Shown in pieces: positions 1-31,150 of a DNA stretch of 64,000 nucleotides. The stretch's first letter is position 1. The number at the start of each line of letters is the position of its first letter. A program made the translations under genes and the position numbers. The notes under the pieces are model-generated. The model saw nothing but the letters and a program-made list of their open reading frames with translations. It made no database searches and was not told where the DNA came from. Source of the stretch: Lama guanicoe (lineage: Eukaryota); NCBI GenBank assembly GCA_013239625.1, contig MU053431.1:2258485-2322484 (forward strand), given 5' to 3'.

Positions 1-278
1 TTTGCAGAACAGGCTCTGTGTCACCATGACACTGGCAGAGCCAACGTGACAACGAAGACAAGACGGTGTGGCCAGACAACCTGCTTGGGGCTGGGGTCTC
101 TGGGGACCGACCCCCGGAACTCACACCCTCGGGAATAACGTCCACCCCAGAGGGACTAGCTCAGAAACGCGAGTGGAGGCCCCGTGGGCGCCCCATGCCG
201 ACAGCGCCACTGGGAGCTCGACGTTTAGAGCTGCCCTGGGCACTCTCAGCCCGGCCCGGGGCCATCCGTTTCCCGGGA

Positions 279-654
279 CGTGTCAGGTTCCTGGGAGGCC
301 AAAAGCAAGGCAGCACAGACCTGCACTGAAAACAACAGAAACACGCCCTCTCCCAGCTCTGGAGACCAGACGTCCGAAGCCAACGCGTCCGTCAGGCTGG
401 GCTCCCTCCAGCTGCCCTGGGAGGGTCCTTCCTGCCCCTCCAGCTCCTGGGGGCCCCGGCCTGGGCTCATGGCTGCCTCCCTCCAATTTCAGCGGATGCG
501 TCTCCTCAGGACACTTGTAAATGGCTCTGGGATCCACCAGACAGCCCAGGACGAGCTCATCCAGAGACCCTTAACCACAGCGGCAAACAAGGCCCATTCA
601 CGAGGCTCCAGGGCACGGACCCGTCTTGGTGGAGCCACCATTCAACCCACTTCA
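279..654 (-). mobile_element. MLT1-type (ERVL-MaLR) LTR, left LTR of a provirus
   Basis: Plus strand resembles the reverse complement of an MLT1 LTR: ctgaaaacaacagaaa..ctctcccagctctggagaccaga..aggacacttgt..gccaccattcaacccact. Boundaries approximate. Confidence 0.75.
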
Positions 655-1909
655 GTCCATCCCCCAAAGTTCATGTCCACTTTACATCCGGAACACATTC
701 ACCCCAAGCCAACATCTCTCAAAGACCCAGCCCGCTACAGCATCAGCTCTGTGTCCAAAGCCTCACTTCAGCCCACAAAGTCCCGAAGGTCATCGTCTCA
801 ATCACCTGAATCCGGTGTGAGCGGCTCTGGGTGTGGTCCGTGAGTGGACCTGTGAACCCAGAAGGCAAGTGATCTGCTCCAAAATGCAGCGGCAGGACTG
901 GCACAGGCCAGACGCGCCTGTTCAAAACGGGAAACCAGGAGGAACAGCCACCGGTCACCCACATTTGAAATCCCACAGGGCAAATCCACTTGGTTGGAAG
1001 CCCCTTGCCCACCTCTGTGCTCCTGGCTCCCTAAGCCTCGGCCCGCACCCCCGGCCGAGGCATCGTCCCTCCTCCTGGAGGGCCACACGTGCGCAGCCAG
1101 CCGACTGCTCCACCAGCCTGCTTCCCGCGGCGGAACCCCAGGGCTGCCGCGTTCCTGCTTTCTGCCCACCTCCCTCCCTCGCTCTTGGTCCAGCCAGGCA
1201 GTGTTTCTGCCAGAATGAAACTCCTAAAGCCTCGTGGGCACCCGCACATGCCCCAGGAGGGACCTCTGCCCGGTGACCCACCCTAGTCCCGCTCCTGCCA
1301 GGAGGGCCGGTCGCACCCACGATCACACACCGGTCTCCCCCACGACAGCCGTCCAGCCACGCCCATGGCCCTCTCTCCAGAGCACGCTCTCCTGGACCCA
1401 GGGTCCTGGTTCATGGTCCTGTGCACCCTGGACGGGCCCGGGCCGCTCCTGCCTCCACCCCCCTTCTCTCCACCTGCGTCTTCCCACAAGCAGCGAGGAG
1501 ACACCAGGCCCACGGCCCACACTCTGCCTGGAAATCTCCTCACTAAACGTCCAGGTTCATCGGGGGCAAGTTCTGGGATGGGATTCGGCCACTTTCTATG
1601 CCACTTACACAAAGGGTCACCTTTCCTCCAGTCCCCAACAACTCGCCTCATGCCAACCGACCCTGCCTCTGCGTCGTATGTAGAGCAGTCACGGCAATTC
1701 CTGCATCACGGGACGTCCCCATGCGCCTCAGTCATCGTGCCCGCCAGCTCCCACGGGAACCGAGCTTAACGTCCGTATTCCCACCAACTGCCTCTCCCAG
1801 GCAACCTGGGCCTTCTCTCCTGTGCTCTTCAAAACGCTGCTGCCGTCATCCAATTCCAGCCACTCTCCAGTCTCAGCCTGGCAGCACCCCACCTCCCGGC
1901 CCCAAAATC
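655..1909 (-). mobile_element. MLT1-int (MaLR internal region), decayed
   Basis: Matches recalled MaLR internal motifs: ccccaaagttcatgtcc..acattcacccc; ctgctccaaaatgcagcggcaggac; tgccacttacacaaagggtcacctttcctccagt; ends ..ccaaaatc just before the second LTR. Confidence 0.7.
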
Positions 1910-2332
1910 CCTGCTCGGCTGCCAGAGCTGCTGCGATGCTGCACCACAAGCAGGGCGGCTTGACTAGATCACAGAAGCGCGTCCTCGCCCAGCTCTGGAG
2001 GCCAGGCTCCAAAATCACGACGTCAGCAGGGCGACCCCTCTGGGGCTCCAGGGAGGGTCTTCCTCGGCTCCCCAGCTCCTGGTGGCCTCAGGCATCCCCT
2101 GGCTGGCGGCCATCTCCCTCCAGTGTCTGCCTCCGCCCACGTGGCCATCTTCAGTGTCTCGTGAAGGACACGTGTCATTGGCTGAGGGCCCACACTGATC
2201 TAGGAGGACCTCACGCTGAGGCCCCTCACTTAATCACATTCACAGAGATTTCTTCCAGATAAGGTCCCATTCACAAGTCGCAGGACATGGACATATCTCT
2301 GCAGGGTGGAGGCCACCATTCAACCCACGACG
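1910..2332 (-). mobile_element. MLT1-type LTR, right LTR of the provirus
   Basis: caccacaagcagggcggcttga..cagctctggaggccagg..aaggacacgtgtcattgg..taatcacattc..gccaccattcaacccac; homologous to 279-654. Confidence 0.8.
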
Positions 2333-2780
2333 GCTGCTCACCCCGAGGAGGGTTCTTCAGTCGGGGAGCCCCGTGGGCACCGTCCTTGCCTCTCTCCCAT
2401 CTGCAAGCTTGTCTCCCATGCACATCCGTCTCTGTCCAGCACTCTGGGAGTCGCAGATTTTGTGTTCATGGGAGAACCGGCGGTTACCACCCACATGTGT
2501 GTCCACTCAATGCTCCAGGGAGATGCGGGGCTGGACTCTGCCTCCCACCCGCAGCCAGAGCTTCCTGGCCCCACGGGGAGGTCCACCCTCTGCCCCACCC
2601 TCACAAGCAGCCGCCCTTGGGATGGGAGCCTAGGGCAGGGTCGGCAAAAGCGGAAACCACCAGTAGCACCGGGTCCCGTGGCCAGCCCACCGGGAGCGCC
2701 CCGGGGCTCGGCGGCAGCCGGGGCCCCTCAGGAGTCCCAGACACCAGGGCCCCGAGCTCCAGCCTGCAGCACCCGCTAAC

Positions 2781-2849
2781 CTGAAGGTGAGGCCAGATTT
2801 ACTCTTGAGGTTCCGCAGCAGCTCCAGCTGGTTGAGTGGCGGGATCAGT
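2781..2849 (-). CDS. KCNQ2: KCNQ2 exon 10 (69 nt): (R)[22 protein letters not shown](R)
   Basis: tgcag| acceptor and |gttagc donor; translation matches the Kv7.2 C-terminal linker. Confidence 0.97.
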
Positions 2850-3739
2850 CTGCAGCGAGAGGAGAGGGCAGTGAGCCCCCGCCACGCAGCCCAGGGCCCT
2901 CACCCCGCCCTCACCGGGGTCACCTCGCACACGGGGCAGGCGGCGCCCGGGGGACTCGGGCTGCGCCCTGTCACAGGCAGAGAGGGGGACTTCACGCGGC
3001 CCGGGCTGGCGTCTCCACCGCTGGGGCCGGGACAGCAGCCACACTCCCCGGGGGCACTCTCCAGGGGCTTGGCCCTGGCAGTGGGCGGTGCCCAGGCCGT
3101 CCCTAGAGACCCGGCCCTGCCCACATGGAGCGGGCCCAGCACAGCCCTGGAAGACAGGGGCTGGGGGCTTCTCCCAAGCCCTGAGCACCCCCTGGGGGCA
3201 GCACAGTGGCAAATGCAGCCCCCCAACGTCCTGAGGCTCCCCGACCCGTCTCCTCAGAGCCACACTCTCTGCCAAAGCTGGGGCGGGGCCGAGGCCAGTG
3301 GGAGGGCTGTGCCAGGCAGAGAGGCCCACTGGTCTGTAGGTGAGCCTCCAGGACGGCTGGAGGAGAGGCCCAGGACCCTGCACCACCTGGCCTGGCTCTG
3401 TTCCAAGGCCCCTATTCCCAAACCGAGTCACGGCCACCAGGCCCACATTCAACACTGCAGCCACCAGGCAGGGAATCCGAGAGGTGAATCAAGTTTCCTT
3501 GTGATGCCAGCGGCGGGCTGCACACCTGGGAGGCTCCCGGGGAAGCCCAGGCTCCCCACTCCGGCCGTAGGAGCCTCGGGTCCTCACTAGGTCTGCAGAG
3601 ACTCCTCCTCCCCACCCACCCCCAACCCACCCCTCACCCACCTCCTCCCAGCTCCTTGTCACCTTCTGCCCCTTCACAGGTTCTCGTCTCTTTGCCCTGC
3701 TTCCTGACCCTGGTCTCTCCTTCCTGACCCAGCCTGACC

Positions 3740-3790
3740 CGCTGTGACACCCCCACCGCTGTGACACCCTCAGTGCTGTGACACCCCCAC
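3740..3790. repeat. 17-bp tandem repeat x3 (YGCTGTGACACCCYCAS)
   Basis: Units at 3740-3756, 3757-3773 and 3774-3790 read directly. Confidence 0.85.
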
Positions 3791-5866
3791 CCAGTCTCAG
3801 CCCCCGAATCTTGTCCTGAGCCTCCATGGTTCCTGACCCTGAGGCCCCCGATGCCCCAGGGCACCTCTGTCCAAGCCTCTCCTGGGCATGCTCCCTCTGT
3901 GTCCTGCAGTGCCACCACTCCAGGCCCTGGCCTGGCTCCAGCCCTCGCCCCACCCCCCACCCCGTCTCCTCCTGGACCTGCCTCTCCCCTCCCGCCCCTC
4001 CTGTGCCCTCCTCCCCTGGGGCTCCCTGGACGCCCACCACCCTCCTTCCTGGGGCTCGTTCTTGTCACCCTCCTGCTCAGACTCTCCAGAGCGCCCTGTT
4101 GCCTCCAAGGTAGAAGGATCTCTGACCCCGCTGCACCCGGACGCGCCTGCCGGCCCTCCCTGCTAGTCTCTGGCTTTGCTCTGGTCCGCCCTCCTCTGCC
4201 CAGCGCTGCCCTCTGGCGCCAGGTGGAGTGCCCTCTGCCCCCCTGTGGCCCCAGCAGAGCCAGGCCTGGATCCTGGAACACGTGCCCTCCCCCCGCTTCC
4301 CCATCCAGGGCTGTCCCCTGTCCTCATAGGTCAAGACCAAGCAGGAGGCCCGGGCAGTCGGGTCGCTCACGTCATGGGTGCAGCGGAGCCCCAGGACTGG
4401 ACATGGGGCAGAGTTGGTCCTCCCACCCCCCGACCGCCCACCACAGGGCCTAGAGCAGAGACCCCAGACCGCTGGCCCCAATCAGCCCCCACACACACAG
4501 GTCCAGGGTAGGGACACGCAGTGAGGACATCATGCCTTGGACACACAGCGGCAGGGAACAGAACACGGGCGGGCAAGGCCACGGGCAGGGACGTGCACAC
4601 ACCACGCACATCGGGGCCACGCACACGCAGCACCGGTGTGGGGGATGAGGGTGCCGTGAGCGACAGGGGTGGGGACACGCTGGGGAGCGTCTCCCAGGAG
4701 CGAGCAATTGTTAGTCTGGGAGTCAGCCACCTCCAGGAGGCCTGGGGCAGGGGGCACCTCCACAGACGTCGAGGAGTGTGGGGCTGGCTGGAAAAGACGG
4801 ACCGAGGGAGCCACCAGGTCTAGGAGGGGCTGTCAGGGCCTGACGCAGGCGCCCTCCAGCTGCATCTGCCCCAGCAGACCAGGACCAGCAGCTGGGGAAG
4901 GACGCTGCTCCCACTGGCACCTTGTCCTCTGAGTGAGGCCCCCGGGGTCTGCAGCCAAGGGGAAGGGTAAGCACTGCTGGGTGGAGAGGCCGAGGGGCTC
5001 AAGTCCCTCCCTCCCATGGAGCGTGCCCTGCACTGCCCAGCACGGCACCCTCTTCCCTTCTGGGAGTGGAGGGGCTGACTTTCTAACAGGGCGCCCATTC
5101 AGGTGCCAGGGGAGGGTGAGAGACCCCTGGAGGGCCCCTCCTGGCCTACGCAGGGAGACGGTGTCCCTGGCTCGGCAGGGCCATGCGTGGATGTCCCCGT
5201 CTAGCACAGTCCCACCACTCTGCAGGGAAGGACAGGGCCTGCAGGGGGACCTGGCCCCGGGCTCGGGGAAACCTCCTATAGCAGCTCAGGGCCCCCAGTA
5301 GGCCCGGAACCCCAGACTAGGGCACAGCAGGAGGAGAGCCCTCGGCGCAGACACAATGCAGGGACACACAGGTGCACCGCAGCCTCTCCTCCCAGGGCCT
5401 GCAGCCTCCCTCTCGCTGCAGTGGGAAGACTCGAGGCAGGGGGAGCGAGGGCATAGAGGGAGCCCCCAAGCAGGGTTGGGGTGAGCTGGCTGGGCAGAGG
5501 CCCCATGAGCAGCACAGAGGGCCGCAGGCTGGGGAGCCCCGTCTCTACCACCTCTGCGTTGGGTGTAAGTGGGGCCCGTGGGGCGGGATGGAGGCGCAAG
5601 GAGAGACTCCAGCCACTGAGACAAGGCAGGAAGCGGGACGAGGAACAGAGGACACCTGGGACAGACAGATCCAGCACGAGAAAGCAGGTTGGGGTGGGGG
5701 CAGTCGAGAGAGGTGGCCAGGGGAGCGAGGGAGGCGCGCGTGACTCCAGGCTGGGGCCACAGGCTGGGCGGGGCACAGGGGCGCCTGGCGGGGGCGCGGG
5801 GCGGCCCCGGAACGGACCCCAACAGAACAGGACCACACCACACACTTTCTGCCCATGCAGTCCTAC

Positions 5867-5896
5867 CTGGAGGCCCCGTAGGTTTGAGTTTGCGAG
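5867..5896 (-). CDS. KCNQ2: KCNQ2 exon 9, alternatively spliced 30-nt microexon: (S)SQTQTYGAS(R)
   Basis: gaaag|CTCGCAAACTCAAACCTACGGGGCCTCCAG|gtagga; matches the known 10-aa optional Kv7.2 segment. Confidence 0.95.
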
Positions 5897-6972
5897 CTTT
5901 CAAGGGTTTTCACACACACACAAAGGGAAAGGAACGAAAATTGGAAAAGAACGGGATAAGAAAAACGAAGCGAAGAAAACGGTCAAGGAAAGTGGGGGGA
6001 ACAAAAGAACAAAGAAAATTAGCAGGAGGGTCAGTGCTGCCTGGACCGGAGCGCTGGGAGCGCCGTGCGGGGCCGAAGGCAGGCGCCTCTGGCGGGGAAG
6101 GTGGCACCGGGCGCCTGCACCAAGCTGAGTGCTCCAGAAAGTGCGGGTGGGGTGGACGCGGAGGGAGGGCTGGGCGGCCCCCCCTCTCCAGGTGGCAAAT
6201 CCTCACAGAGGCAGGGGGCCGGTGGAGCCCCAGGCGGACAGCTCCGTGAGTGCAAACCCCAGGAGCAGGTAAGGAGACTGGGGCCCCCCAGGCCCCCAAG
6301 GGTGGAGGGCAGGCTGGCGGGGCAGTGCCCACCTGAGGGCACCCGCCCTGCATGGACTCCGGGCGGCCCCATCGCTTCTCAGCTCAGACCTCGTCTAAGC
6401 TGGAGCCTGGCACAGACAAGCCCAGGGTGGCCTGGAAAGCCGCCGGCTGACCAGCGGCCTCATGGGTCTACTGGCACTGCCCCCGCTGACCGCCCCCGGG
6501 GAGGGACTGCCGGCCCCTTCTCTCCCACCGAGGGCACCTAGGGGTGTCTGTGCTTTGTCCTTTCGGGGCCTCACTGTGGTCCTGGGTCCTCTCCTTTCTC
6601 GGGGAGAGAACCTGGCCCCCGCTGAAGGACAGAGGGTCAAGGTTAGCCTTTCACTTCTAAACGCGGGGCCACCCTGGCAGGGCCGCGCCGCACCGCACCG
6701 GGGCTGCGATTCACGGACTGGCCAGCATTTACCTCCGCGAGCTCTGGGGGGCTGTCTCCGCGGTGCTCACACACAAGGCACCTGACAGCAAGGACACTAA
6801 GCAGGGGGGCGGAATGAAGGTGAAAAATAAAAGCCGCAAACTACAAAACAAAGAACAAAATTAACACCTCAAAATAAATCACACACAATTCTTTTTTGGA
6901 AGTTACACACATTTTAAAGAAAGAGAAACAAAAGAAATCAGAATGATGAACAACAACAAAAAATGGGGCTTA

Positions 6973-7116
<144 letters not shown>

Positions 7117-7569
7117 TCAGGCGGCCCTGAGGGGAGGCGGGGCTGGCAGAGCCCAAGGCCTCAGGAGGGGCCCCCACCTCTCCCAGGGCCTGGCCCCTGA
7201 GCACCCCCCTGCACCAGGCTCTGGACCGCGGTCCCCTGGCACCTGCCCCACCCCCAACAGGCCTCAGCCTCTGTAGAATGGACACACATGTTTGCCCGCT
7301 GTGGCTGGCGGGGCCTGGAGGAAGGGGCGCAGGTCAAGCACACGGTGAGTCTGCAGGGGGCCTCCACTTCTTTCCTTTCATCTCATCTCACTGAGGCCCA
7401 GCAGCTACCACCTGGCATCGTGGCTGCCTTCCTGCCCTCCCCCAGCCCTGAGGGAGCTTTCCACTGGACTCCGGAGCTGGGGGCGGGGGCAGAGCCAGGG
7501 ACCCGCTGGCCAGCCCTTATTTTGAAATGCGTCACCCCACCGCCTTCCGGCCCCCACAGTCTCTGGTGA

Positions 7570-8900
7570 GGAATCAGCAGTTACTCTCACTGAGGCCCCT
7601 TGGGCATCAGAAGTCACTTCTCTCTCGCTGCTTCCAAGATCTGCCTTCACCAGTGTGCTCCCAGTGTGTCCCGGAGCAGCTCTGTGACTATCCTGCTTGG
7701 ATGTATAGATTCACGTCTTTCACCCAATCTGGGAAGTTTTCAGTCTTTTCGCCCGCCTCTCTTCCCTTTCTGGGACTGCCATTATGCCAAGATCGGCAGG
7801 TTAGCTGGTGTCCCGCCAGTCTCACGGGCTCTGTTCATTCCCCTTCCTTTGCTTTCTTTCTGCCCCGCAGCCTGGGTAACTTCAACTGACCCGTCTGCAG
7901 GTTTGCCGACGCTTCCTCGTGCCGGCTCAGGTCTGCTGCTGACCCTCCGGTGAGTTTTTCGTTTCAGCCACTGTACCCCTCAGCTCCCGAATTTCTCTCT
8001 GGCTCCCTTTTATAATTTTGATCTCTACTGACACTCCCCATTGGGTGAGATGTCAGTCTTCTGTTTTCCTTTGGTTCTTTCCTGTGGATCCCTTTAGACT
8101 TTTGAGCATACTTAAACGGCTGACTTGATGTCTTCGTCTAGTAAATCAAATACCTGAGCTTCTTCAGAGACAGTGTCCACTGATTTTTCTCCTTGTGATT
8201 AGACCATACCTCCTTGTTTCTTTGCATGCCTCACAATTTCTCGTTGAAAACTGGACATTTTGAGTATTACCACGTGGTTCTTCGGAAGCAGATTCTCCCC
8301 TGTCCCCAGAGCTTTTCGCTGCTACTCGCCACTGACGGTAGCTGTTTGTCAAATGACTTTTCTAAGCTGTTCTGCAAACACTGTATACTCTTCATTGTGT
8401 GTGGTCACTCACATCTGTTCCCCTTACCTCAGTGGTCAGTGACTTGACAGAGGTTCCATTAAACCCAACAAACCAAAGAGGAAACAAACACCCTCGGTCC
8501 TTGCAGACCGGCCCTGCGTGGGGGCACATTCAGCAAGGCCACTTACAGCTCCACCTTAGCCTTCACTTCCTGCTTGCATGGAGTCTAAAGACGGCCTGAG
8601 GTGAGCACTGAGGGTCTTCTCTAGTCACTTCCGAGCCTGCGTCCAGCACTACGCAAGTGAGTGGCCGCCTACATCCCCCCGAGACATGGGGGTCCCTCCC
8701 AAACCCTCAGTCCCCTGTGAATCCTTCCCAAACCTCTGAGCTTCTTGGAGAGGAGAGGAAGAGGGGAGGTGCCGTGTGTTCGGGCCTCGCTCCCTCCCTG
8801 CGATGCCCGAGCCTCTGAACCGCAGGCAGGGCTGCGACTTCACTGCCAGTAGTGGGCGAGACTGGGGCGCTTTTGTTCTTCTTTATATCCTTGTGCAATT
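7570..8900 (-). mobile_element. Old L1 (L1M-type) 5'/ORF1-region fragment in KCNQ2 intron 7
   Basis: T-rich plus strand with typical antisense L1M phrases (atctgggaagttttcagtc; tgggactgccattatg; cagctcccgaatttctctctggctcccttt; tgtcttcgtctagtaaatc). Boundaries approximate. Confidence 0.7.
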
Positions 8901-9456
8901 AAAACAAGTAGCCATTTGAAGCTCTTATGGTGAAAGACACATGCGTACATATACCCGTAAATGCAGGCTGCACCCAGGGCAGGACCTCGTCGTCAAGAAA
9001 GACAGACACGTGAGGTGCTGGGGCCATGTCCAGCCAGCGGTAGAGCCGGTCAGTTCCAAAGTCCCCGGGCCCCCCACGCTTTGAGAGGGGCTGTGGGAAC
9101 ATGAGGCCACACTTTCAGGATGGCTCAGGAAGCACTGCTGGACGCCGAGCAGCCACTGTGGCCCCTGGCAGTGGGGTGGGCCTTCAGCTGGGGCACCTAC
9201 CTGAGGTGGGGCCTCTGAACCCTGATCCCACACCTGCAGGATGGGTACCAGTGCTATGAAGGGACACCTCAGGGGCAGCTGTGACAGCCTGGCCCAGAGC
9301 CCGGGGCCAGCACCAGCCTCCACGCTGCCTGGGCTGGAGCCGCCATGCAGCCCGGGGTGTCTGAGCTGGTTCTCGGCACAGACACTGACTCCCCGACAGG
9401 GAGACACTGAGCAGGGCTCTGCTCCGACGCCGTGGGCCCGGCCAGAGGCTCCGCCA

Positions 9457-9517
9457 GTTCCCGTGGGGGTTCCTGTGGGGGTTCCCGTGGGGGTTCCCGT
9501 GGGGGTCCACGTGGGGG
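9457..9517. repeat. 12-bp minisatellite x5 (GTTCCCGTGGGG)
   Basis: Five units read directly, about 15 nt into KCNQ2 intron 7. Confidence 0.95.
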
Positions 9518-9531
9518 CCGCCTGGACTCAC

Positions 9532-9627
9532 CTGGATCAGGCCAGCTGCAGGGTTCCGCCTCTTCTCAAAGTGCTTCTGACGATGCTGCTCTTGAACTTT
9601 CAGGGCGAAGCCAGACCCCAGAATGCC
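9532..9627 (-). CDS. KCNQ2: KCNQ2 exon 7 (96 nt): [32 protein letters not shown]
   Basis: cag| and |gtgagt; S6 end and proximal C-terminus. Confidence 0.99.
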
Positions 9628-10216
9628 CTGCAGGCCACTGGGATCAGATGGCGCCCCAGGGACCACAGTCCCCCCACCCTTGCCTGCACTCCTGGCTCTG
9701 CCCTCCCACCTTCTCAGCCCCTCATCACCAGGAGTCACCAGGAGACAGGCTGGGGGGAAGACTTGGGCTCACAGGAGCCTGGCAGGGCCCGCCCACACGG
9801 AACACACCTGGGCCCAGAGAGCAGTCCTCCTGCCCTGGTCTGTCCACACTGACGTGAGCGGAGGGGTGAGGCCCAGGGTCACAGGAGGGCCACCTGGGGA
9901 GCAGCCCCACTGGCCACCCCCGACCCTGCCTGGCTGTGGGTGACAGTTATCTGAAGCTCCGTGGCAGGAGATGGGGTCCCGGGTGCCCTGGGAGCTGACG
10001 GGGGGCCGTGTCGCCCTGCAGCACTGCTCCTGGTAATAGGGCCCCTCCTGGCCCAGCCCACTGGGCTGGGGGGAGCTGGCAGGTGTGGGTCAGAAGGCAC
10101 AGCTGGGAGAGACTCAGAGCCCCCGATGGAGCCTTGTGGGAGCTCTGTCCCCACGGAGGTGCCGCTTGCAGCTGCTCGGGGGCTGGGGGCCTGCTGGGAG
10201 CCATGTGCCCGCCTCA

Positions 10217-10600
<384 letters not shown>

Positions 10601-12399
10601 TCAAAGGCTCTGCTCCTGCGTGTCGCCCAGGCTAGCAGGGCAGGTTTGCCGTGGACGGAGCAGCGGCTCCAGCTGAGCTCAGGCCAGGTGGGTGGCCAGG
10701 AGGCTCGCAGAGAGCAGGGCCTGAGAGGGGACAGTGCCCAGAGGGCCCCTCCAGGGACACAGAGAGGGTTGTGTGGGGGCCCTCAGAAGGCGGCTTGTAA
10801 GCTGAGGCCAGAAGAGGAGTGGGAGAGGGCTGGGGGAGGAAGAGGACCTCTCCCTGTGGTGTGGCGGGCAGCGCGGGCGGCCCCAGGGCGATGGAGGGAC
10901 CGGGAGACTCGGCGTCCGGGGGCCAGCACCCGGGGGCCGGCGTTCATGGCCCGCACGCGGGAGGCCAGCTTGAGAGGGAGGCAGTGGGGGGACTCCCCCA
11001 ACACCAGTGAGCCCCTCCAAGGGCCACAGGCCTGCAGAGCAGAAGAAAGGGGGCCTCAGGCAGGAGGCTACCCAAGAATGGCAGTGATGGGAAGGGGGCT
11101 GACCTCATCCTGTCACAGCACAAAATGAAATCTTCCAAGTGTGACGTTCACAGTGGGGGCCACGGTGTAGGTGTGACTGGGGAGCACGCAGGAGGGGTCC
11201 GGGCTGGGGAAGACGGGCACAGCGGGGGTTCCATGTAACACTCAGGCACTACTCGGCATATTAAAATTTTGGATTCAATTCTTAAAGATGGGAAGGCCCT
11301 CAGGAAGGGCAGGCCGCATCACCAGCGGGGGCAGACTGTCCAGTCAGAGCCTGGACCTGCAGGGAGCTGTGGGCTCTGGGCCCCAGCCTCAACTCCCCTC
11401 GCCTACCCTGCGCCCAGGCCCCTGACCACCCTGCTGCCCACGTGGTGAGATAGAAGGACACGGATTCGAGCCTTGTGGCAATTAAAATGACCACAAGTAA
11501 ACTGCATTCTGCTTAAACGCTGGGTGGAGGCTGGCATCTCTCTTCCCAGCAACTGGGTTTGCAGCACCTGCCTAGCGTCACAAGGTCGTCATTTTCTGAG
11601 CTGGGTCTAGGGTCCCAGAGACAATAGGCTCTGCCCTCCCAGACCTACGGGACCCTCCACAGGCCTGGCGCCCCCCAGGCGGAGTGTCCAGCACACCCAG
11701 GAAGTGCCACAAAGGAGGGGTACTTGGGACCCCGCACGTGGAGGCGTCCATGGAAACGGCTGAGAAGGAGCCAGGCTGACAGCCGTTCAGCTACTGGGGT
11801 TGCGGCCTGTGGGGCCCAGCTCGGTCTCCAGAGGGCACTCTGAAAGCACGGGGTCCCCACTAGGAGCAGGAGGGGCCCAAGAAGGCTTTTCTCACAAAAG
11901 GCCACTAGCGCTGGGCCCAGGACGGGGTGGCCATGAGCATGGACCAAAAGTCCGTAGGCAGCCCTACTACGCTGGGCAGGGGCAGCCTGGGAGGTTAAGC
12001 TCAGGGAGGCAGGGGGTCCAGTTCCCCTTTTTCAAACTCTACTGTCCCTTAACATGACAGGCAAAGCCGCCCCTCCTCCCCTCCAGCACAAAGGTCACAC
12101 AGGTGTCAGTAAGGCAGGAAGGTAACTGGCCAGGCTGCTCACGGGTTCCCCGGGGGCCAGGCCTTTCTCCGCCCCACATGGGCCAGCGCATCCCCACCCA
12201 GCCTGGACCAGCACCGCCACCTGGCCTCTTGGTCAGGAGTGGCCAGCAGGTGGCCCCCGAGAGACGTCTCCAGCCAGGTTGGCCAGGGAGAGTCACTGCA
12301 CCTCCTGTTCAGCCCAGGGAGTCGAGGGCACACCCGGGGGGAGGGGGCAGACAGTGGCGGAAGGACCCCGAGGGGCCGTGCCCAGCGAGCGCATCCTCA

Positions 12400-12564
<165 letters not shown>

Positions 12565-12950
12565 TCATAGCCGCTGGGCCAGCGTCCAGCCCTGTCCGCC
12601 CCTGGAGCACTGAGGCCCCGCCTGCCTGGAGGCCTGCTGGGCTCCGCGACGCCAGGGCTTCAGGGGGTGGACGCCCTTCCAGAGTGCCAGCCACAGAGCC
12701 CCCAGCACCCCAGGGCCGGGGCGGGCAAGAAGGGCAGCTGGTTTCCAGTCCTGGCCCTGGGTTGTCCAGCCTCTGTGCATCTCACACCTGGGAGGGCAGC
12801 GGGGAAGGACGGCCCAGCGCCGCATCCACCCGGGTTAGGTGTGTGGTCAGGTGGCCTCCAGGCAGTCAGGCTGGAGAACCTCGGGACTGTGGGGACCCTA
12901 TCCCAATTTCCCCGAGCCTGGGGGAGACACCTCAGTGCCTTTGGGGACTA

Positions 12951-14957
<2,007 letters not shown>

Positions 14958-30359: not shown

Positions 30360-31150
30360 TTAACCATGGGACCCCAGGCACACGGTGTGACCGTGTGACA
30401 GACGCGGGCCCTCATGGCCCGCGGCTGCGCGGCTGCGGGCCGCCAGCAGCCGACCTGCCCGGCGGTGCCGCACGACCCGCGCCCGCCGCCCNNNNNNNNN
30501 NNNNNNNNNNNNNNNNNNNNNNNNNNNNNNNNNNNNNNNNNNNNNNNNNNNNNNNNNNNNNNNNNNNNNNNNNNNNNNNNNNNNNNNNNNNNNNNNNNNN
30601 NNNNNNNNNNNNNNNNNNNNNNNNNNNNNNNNNNNNNNNNNNNNNNNNNNNNNNNNNNNNNNNNNNNNNNNNNNNNNNNNNNNNNNNNNNNNNNNNNNNN
30701 NNNNNNNNNNNNNNNNNNNNNNNNNNNNNNNNNNNNNNNNNNNNNNNNNNNNNNNNNNNNNNNNNNNNNNNNNNNNNNNNNNNNNNNNNNNNNNNNNNNN
30801 NNNNNNNNNNNNNNNNNNNNNNNGCGGGCACGGGCTCAGCGAGGGCGGTGCGTAGGGGGCGGCGCGGCCCCGAGCCCAGGTCCCCAGCCCGGGAGCCCCA
30901 GGGCCAAGGCGGCGGCAGCGGCGGCGGCGGCGGCTCCGCGCTCCTACGGGCCCCGGGCCGCGCGCGGGGACGCTGCGGCCACCTCGCTCCGCGCGCCTGG
31001 GCTCCTCGCCCGCGGCCCCGCCGGCTCCGCCCGCCGCCTCGCCCCGCCCCCCGTTAACCCCTGCGCCGCCGTGCGGGCCCCAGGAAGAAAAGGGCGGGAG
31101 GAGAGGGAAGAGAGATGAGGGAAGCGGACCCCTTTCCGCTCCCCGGACAC
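30360..31150 (-). promoter_or_regulatory. KCNQ2: KCNQ2 CpG-island promoter, 5' UTR and start of intron 1
   Basis: Extreme CpG density on both sides of the gap; GC box ccccgcccc near 31022-31050; (GGC)n run about 30908-30933; minus strand of 30824-30940 resembles the KCNQ2 5' UTR. Confidence 0.9.
30492..30823. other. KCNQ2: Assembly gap (332 N) that almost certainly hides the KCNQ2 exon 1 coding sequence (about 296 nt, Met1-Val99)
   Basis: The exon 1 CDS is absent elsewhere; the 5' UTR runs into the gap; the gap size fits 296 coding nt plus short flanks. Confidence 0.85.

Follow-up and report, generated by a model that had tools for sequence, protein, structure and literature searches.

The window, a stretch of 64,000 nucleotides from Lama guanicoe, carries the epilepsy gene KCNQ2 on its minus strand. 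Using tblastn of KCNQ2 proteins and splice-site snapping, we placed exons 2 to 10 at 14598-2781; the later exons lie outside the window, in the adjacent 20 kb of the same genome. Residues 1-99 (exon 1) gave no tblastn match in the readable sequence of window positions 14600-64000 (a second search covered positions up to 30400), and the window has one run of N, at 30492-30823. For the C-terminal half of the protein, sheep and goat were the closest among the retrieved proteins (about 93%). The distal 36-residue insert of Kv7.2 has a 108-nt exon of its own, some 18 kb downstream of candidate exon 8a, the subject of this work. A GC donor (CAG/gcaag; L002, about 465-470, minus strand, about 9.5 kb past the window start) follows the exon ending ..NLQSR, and therefore the distal 108-nt cassette has a GC-AG intron in front of it. 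The features around exon 8 are as follows.

7001..7095, minus strand: KCNQ2 exon 8, 95 nt, ending ..TVPMY plus AG, phase 2 (tblastn and splice-site snapping)
6995..7003, minus strand: exon 8 donor, CAG/gtaccc, 6/9 U1 matches
6970..7000, minus strand: predicted exon 8 read-through tail, 10 residues and then TAA at 6972-6970 (ORF 6970..7116)
6841..7000, minus strand: U-rich island, 49% T, which is the 160-nt intron when the 6840 acceptor is used
6860..6864, minus strand: branch-point-like TTAAT, candidate branch A at 6861 (from the sequence)
6840..6865, minus strand: alternative 3' splice site 1, polypyrimidine tract and TAG/T, acceptor ttttgtag/T at 6841/6840
6733..6840, minus strand: candidate exon 8a, 108 nt, phase 2-2, open in this species
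6796..6800, minus strand: second, weaker acceptor, TTAG/T at 6797/6796, score 1.5, used by gray whale model P0123 and AG-compatible in P0005
6727..6735, minus strand: candidate donor GAG/gtaaat at 6733/6732, 7/9 U1 matches
5867..5896, minus strand: KCNQ2 exon 9, the known 30-nt cassette (tblastn and splice-site snapping)
2781..2849, minus strand: KCNQ2 exon 10 (tblastn and splice-site snapping)

Two further stretches near these exons stand out in composition. In intron 7, at about 7550-8500, a low-GC stretch that is A-rich on the minus strand has, by eye, the look of an old LINE fragment. A second U-rich island (5897-6020, minus strand, 49% T, with a (TG)6 run) precedes exon 9. Control of this neuron-specific cassette is likely seated there; the exon 9 acceptor is a weak AAG with a lowest-type score and a tandem AG-free tract of 138 nt.

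The first-pass annotation of this DNA had proposed 8a as an in-frame cassette exon in KCNQ2 intron 8. Its description of the layout survives recalculation: a strong acceptor with TTAAT lies at 6841/6840, 160 nt past the exon 8 donor, a good donor lies at 6733/6732, and the interval between them is 108 nt long, runs from phase 2 to phase 2, is stop-free in the KCNQ2 frame and encodes the peptide as written there. The claim that 8a differs from the known distal 36-residue insert also holds, given the separate position of the distal exon. To score the sites, we built a weight matrix from the 17 acceptors and 16 donors of KCNQ2 itself, of which one donor was mis-snapped at the GC-AG intron. The 6840 acceptor scores 8.0, which is mid-range for the real acceptors (-1.9 to 13.7) and is reached by 55 of 1,937 intronic AGs, and it is the most T-rich of those 1,937 (14 T in 20). 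The branch-point consensus, for comparison with TTAAT, is yUNAy. The 6733 donor scores 8.4, and 12/1,619 intronic GTs score as high. The upstream intron had been called a U-rich island, and rightly so, as the T-richest 150-nt stretch of window positions 1-14600 falls in the 160 nt after exon 8.

Several products can be read from these sites. Joined to exon 9 (5896-5867) or exon 10 (2849-2781), 8a is stop-free and encodes a 36-aa peptide. When the 6733 donor is left unused, the frame ends after 37 residues at a TAA (6731-6729) that lies inside the donor, so that the 6840 acceptor is followed by an in-frame stop, as in an alternative last exon. Two AGs within 8a, at 6797/6796 and 6782/6781, give frameshifting exons of 64 and 49 nt with the same donor. 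A premature stop, as in a poison exon, is thus apparent here with acceptors 2 and 3, as it is in the orthologues described below, and is absent here with acceptor 1 plus the donor. A search of the animal's own genome found the element in single copy (1 match), with no TRF array over it, and so gave no sign of repeat origin. Recursive splicing is ruled out, with TT rather than GT following the AG at 6841.

How much of this could arise by chance? Stop-free frames occur in 43% of shuffles of 8a, which, multiplied by 1/3 for a length divisible by three, gives a joint chance of about 14%. In 28.5 kb of intron sequence, 13 strong AG-GT pairs exist, and 2/13 are both 3n in length and open. The caution in the first-pass annotation that frame and openness can be fortuitous was well placed: the open frame of 8a in this species is probably chance. 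Its peptide had been called strongly hydrophobic, and it is (KD 1.78), but no more than chance allows (shuffle p=0.064), with another frame at 1.73 and all three frames of the island at 1.4-1.5; the hydrophobicity follows from U-richness. The appeal to NOVA-like motifs fails, as the island holds an ordinary 3 YCAY in 160 nt (p=0.37), short of a NOVA cluster. We therefore dropped both the NOVA cluster and the hydrophobicity as evidence. We also rejected a TDP-43 cryptic exon, given that the element is conserved and its UG runs reach only 3-4 units. The published TDP-43 event in KCNQ2 concerns exon 5, and that paper mentions neither exon 8 nor intron 8 (PMC12672377).

Independent evidence for the acceptor comes from proteins of other animals. 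Our sample of exon-8-bearing proteins comprised 120 of 977 matches, 38/39 candidates at 132-420 aa, 53 representatives and, in addition, cluster members (≤15 per cluster). Among the matches listed, 282/310 retrieved proteins carry exon 8; 155 of these 282 continue into exon 10 and 55 into exon 9 (mammal-type start), and most others read into intron 8. Three of the 282, again among the matches listed, continue with SLRLLF and so enter 8a in this frame. P0185 and P0189 are two distinct Logan contig ORFs (contigs of 3,020 and 3,933 nt) from one other animal. Each runs from intron-7-like sequence through exon 8 and then joins directly to the orthologue of the 6840 acceptor (SLRLLF..), and P0185 matches the 8a peptide at 14/18 residues. 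In the same cluster, 4/6 members carry the same upstream sequence and run unspliced into intron 8. Partly spliced RNA would lose one intron piece exactly while retaining the intron upstream, and it is the best explanation of P0185 and P0189, as we infer from the ORFs rather than from contig DNA; the junction comes from one organism and gives no frequency. The red deer model OWK02933.1 (P0180), marked partial and a hypothetical-protein model, uses the same acceptor, with 11/11 residues identical. The gray whale model J1605_012995 (P0123), likewise a hypothetical-protein model, uses the second AG at 6797/6796 and reads through the donor region; it has no indel between 6796 and the donor, keeps E-V-N across it and is donor-compatible. 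On the site scores, the junction in P0185 and P0189 and the deer model, 6841/6840 is a real 3' splice site, and the hidden acceptor posited by the first-pass annotation exists, spliced to exon 8 in another animal. No new spliced record emerged from a search of 50%-cluster representatives with P0185 (24 of 53 matches listed), and none of the retrieved named RefSeq mammal isoforms uses the 6840 acceptor in this frame.

It could be argued that 8a is a chance AG/GT pair and that assembly or gene prediction produced the joined records as artefacts. The 13 strong pairs in intron sequence and the hypothetical-protein status of the deer and whale models would allow this. Against it, no intron-aware gene model entered the read assemblies behind P0185 and P0189, and their join coincides exactly with the exon 8 end and with an AG that had been predicted blind, from sequence alone. 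We regard an artefact as highly improbable.

The surrounding RNA sequence is conserved, whereas the reading frame is not. The comparison used back-translated genomic read-through ORFs of other animals, that is, proteins and not DNA. All nine back-translated read-through tails (9/9) align with the island, with scores of 36-75 vs 9-29 for the best of 8 shuffles each. Conservation of the non-coding flank thus covers the upstream island in 9/9 tails, and the downstream flank as compared in the whale. Five read-through ORFs reach 6841, which may stand for two or three lineages only, and all of them (5/5) allow the AG, with similarity continuing beyond it. In 3/5 (P0006, P0011 and P0148), there is one extra nucleotide (+1 nt) just behind the AG. 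The other two (P0149 and P0005) keep the frame at the exon start, one staying in frame for ~7 codons and then diverging, and the other being shorter by 6 nt as far as the second AG. P0149 lacks the branch-like A. Among the spliced records, tails end after 17 residues in P0185 and P0189 and after 11 in red deer P0180; these early ends are likeliest to be stops, with a contig or model edge possible. Judging from the indels and early ends in orthologues, it is the U-rich RNA and the AG, rather than the peptide, that appear to be under selection.

This bears on the in-frame cassette of the first-pass annotation, in which, for this lineage at least, 8a would supply the helix A-B linker with a functional hydrophobic insert of 36 residues. 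The good acceptor and donor, the 3n length and the open frame all suit such a cassette, as does the donor-compatible whale sequence, which lacks an indel from 6796 to the donor, and in a close relative both sites persist with the frame intact. It also suits a cassette that the first 11 residues are identical in deer and 14/18 in P0185, although matching first residues in these two are expected if the RNA near the acceptor is conserved. Against a cassette, the records in the same frame stop within the exon, the frame is shifted by +1 nt in 3/5 orthologues, and none of the exon-8 proteins among the matches listed (0/282) has the 8a peptide running on into exon 9 or 10. Likewise, use of the 6733 donor was not seen in the relative's contigs, openness has its chance level of about 14%, hydrophobicity is compositional, and the sole exon difference in the relative is a missense change (n=1). 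A search with a 43-aa peptide among proteins of 77-2000 aa, which put the predicted peptide to a weak test with P0180 and P0185 hidden as cluster members, found 0/11 candidates. Of the features expected of a conserved cassette, a functional 3' splice site was found, while a frame kept in orthologues and the peptide in full-length isoforms were not. Coding constraint across species is not supported by these alignments, in which the 8a peptide is not conserved, and the claim of a conserved in-frame coding cassette finds no support in the tails ending at 11 or 17 residues, the added nucleotide and the 0/282 count. The first-pass annotation had asked after conservation of both splice sites and frame: the AG stands (allowed in 5/5), but the frame is broken in 3/5. 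The alternative it offered, conserved sites with stops or frameshifts that indicate a poison exon, fits the early tail ends and the +1 nt better. We consider a functional in-frame cassette unlikely.

Reads from a close relative bear on use of the acceptor. Of the 21 runs listed for this lineage, 9 are RNA or guessed to be so, with small shares; we compared contigs of X1, X2, X3 and X9 over the covered parts of 6000-6995, a stretch that excludes coding exons, so that a junction contig with little overlap could escape. The contigs of X1 (6565-6903) and X3 (6381-6917, depth 48), from one study, are unspliced across both 8a sites and 96-99% identical to the window; X2 bridges the donor, and X9 does not cover the exon. 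The junctions proposed by the first-pass annotation, 7001>6840 and from 6733 onward, did not turn up: the relative's contigs, 3 of which bridge the donor, show no joints or loose ends at 6840/6733 (tissue unspecified, and RNA a guess for X1-X3). Loose ends at 6883, 6919 and 6930 were set aside as 34-37-nt low-identity matches. As contigs drop rare forms, these data show only that the form with 8a does not predominate there. In the relative, both 8a sites and the frame are intact, and the exon differs once, by P to L at 6811. For exon and island taken together, divergence (2/185 vs 12/352) was not significantly lower (p=0.15).

The same region was searched for transcript ends. None of 18 poly(A) hexamer variants occurs on the minus strand of 7000-2850, and therefore the case for a polyadenylated terminal exon here is weakened. 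The contigs stop at 6381 (X3), 6427 (X9) and 6565 (X1), with no common end. X3 consists of a single contig at depth 48 over 6381-6917, with nothing over 6000-6380, a pattern unmatched by other runs; its edge could be a transcript end without a poly(A) hexamer.

Intron 8 is already known as the site of a short isoform. Human KCNQ2 has six curated transcripts. In one of them, transcript e, exon 8 continues into the intron; this form has its highest abundance in fetal brain, carries no current and suppresses the full channel, and the same source describes the short exon 1-8 form as lacking follow-up since 2001 (PMC7657400). The human isoform e protein (P0156; NM_172109, NP_742107.1) has a 21-residue tail and stops before the position of the 6840 acceptor. 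The tail at 6970..7000 is its predicted positional equivalent here, read-through in this species being likewise predicted, and the island after exon 8 belongs to the same intron into which the known short isoform reads. This short isoform, Q2S, and the 8a route share a branch point at the exon 8 end, the same intron 8 island, truncation at the start of the A-B linker and a non-conserved tail. They differ in that Q2S reads through the exon 8 donor, whereas the 8a route splices that donor to an internal acceptor 160 nt away and includes a candidate donor from which a return to exon 9 or 10 is possible.

In a rival account, the island is kept for another job, such as extending the short isoform at its 3' end, keeping intron 8 in the transcript or enhancing the exon 8 donor, with the acceptor a by-product that is used as low-level splicing noise. 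The extension of exon 8 in the human short isoform speaks for this account, as do conservation that spans the whole island and not just the tract, the relative's unspliced contigs at depth 48, the loss of the branch-like A in P0149, and the lack of the acceptor, in this frame, from the named RefSeq mammal isoforms retrieved. It sits less well with a junction that survived contig assembly, which drops rare variants, in 2/6 cluster members, with an AG compatible in 5/5 orthologous ORFs and similarity past it, and with an acceptor tract that is the T-richest of 1,937 intronic AGs. On balance we rate it as somewhat unlikely, yet as the strongest competitor.

In the reading we favor, with moderate confidence, KCNQ2 intron 8 has at 6841/6840 a conserved alternative 3' splice site that likely opens a truncating (terminal or poison) exon, not a coding cassette. 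Three fates would then be available after exon 8. Splicing to exon 9 or 10 gives the full channel, as the annotated proteins show. Left unspliced, the transcript reads through to a stop within about 10-20 codons, the fetal Q2S type, as shown for human isoform e and predicted here. In the third fate, removal of the 160-nt U-rich piece would lead into 8a, as at the junction in one animal, and the frame would soon end; the product would be a Q2S-like subunit that stops beyond helix A, or an NMD substrate in the event that the downstream donor returns it to exon 9 or 10. Such a truncated product would end at residue 373 plus a short tail, past helix A and short of helices B-D. With acceptor 1 and the donor, this species would yield the 36-residue insert; the acceptor alone would end the protein after 37 residues, and the second AG would shift the frame. 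Likely controllers would be U-binding regulators of the PTBP, TIA1 or Hu kind. We infer for this exon that it serves truncation or NMD, that it is developmentally regulated and that U-binding proteins control it. The hydrophobic insert is probably a lineage accident.

It is tempting to go further. We tentatively raise the possibility, with doubt outweighing belief, that intron 8 holds an undescribed, regulated off-switch exon mammal-wide, human included. It is similarly conceivable, if doubtful, that a developmentally controlled acceptor leads to NMD or to a Q2S-like suppressor, in parallel to the read-through form, and offers a site for deep-intronic epilepsy variants and an ASO target; on that same view, 8a might in this lineage have shed its stop and turned into a young coding exon of 36 residues. 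Neonatal excitability depends on KCNQ2 dosage and isoform balance, and a second, spliced truncation route with one discrete conserved AG makes the short-form switch testable. If present in human, the acceptor would be a place to look for missed intronic variants and to attempt splice-switching up-regulation, and a true off-switch would be an ASO target to raise Kv7.2 in haploinsufficiency. The best-known comparison is the poison exon of SCN1A, which is named 20N. It is a target of splice-modulating ASOs, and the 2026 review that describes this lists, in its available part, no established KCNQ2 ASO treatment (PMC13762165). Poison (AS-NMD) exons of epilepsy channel genes resemble 8a in having conserved intronic sequence, a used acceptor, no conserved peptide and early termination in orthologues; unlike them, 8a is a candidate by sequence as regards donor use and NMD, and its 108-nt form here has no premature stop. 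The in-frame cassettes of Kv7.2 (exon 9, exon 12 and the distal 108-nt exon) share its 3n length, exon 9 also its phase 2-2 and region, but their peptides are conserved and recurrent (exon 9 in 55/282), whereas the 8a peptide reaches the downstream exons in 0/282.

Kv7.2 has many C-terminal variants (PMC8209339, in part), a long-read atlas has, in its accessible text, a novel KCNQ2 isoform by exon skipping (10.64898/2025.12.16.693263), and PTBP2 reportedly regulates Kcnq2 splicing, at an exon that the consulted text leaves unnamed (PMC3896118). We found no description of the 6840 acceptor in the literature, including the available portions of 10.1101/2021.09.17.460749, PMC10802467 and PMC2597720; the isoform tables of 10.64898/2025.12.16.693263 may list 8a, and an earlier mouse or rat account (Nakamura 1998, Smith 2001, Pan 2001) is possible.

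Short KCNQ2 records in other vertebrates raise a related point. Automated short models from a marsupial, two frogs and two fishes (P0292, P0132, P0184, P0142 and P0295) end soon after exon 8, with tails that start in Ser, which suggests, on the strength of these models, recurrent truncating acceptors at the exon 8 end across vertebrates. Like the deer and whale models, the automated Tasmanian devil and Lithobates records splice exon 8 elsewhere than to exon 9 or 10 and soon end, and they differ in that only deer (acceptor 1) and whale (acceptor 2) map to the 8a element. A spliced short tail follows exon 8 in automated annotations of Tasmanian devil (X12, XP_031807642.1) and of two frogs, with Lithobates X4 (XP_077316484.1) among them. 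The devil and frog tails, which are too short for a homology test, hint at an older habit of truncation here.
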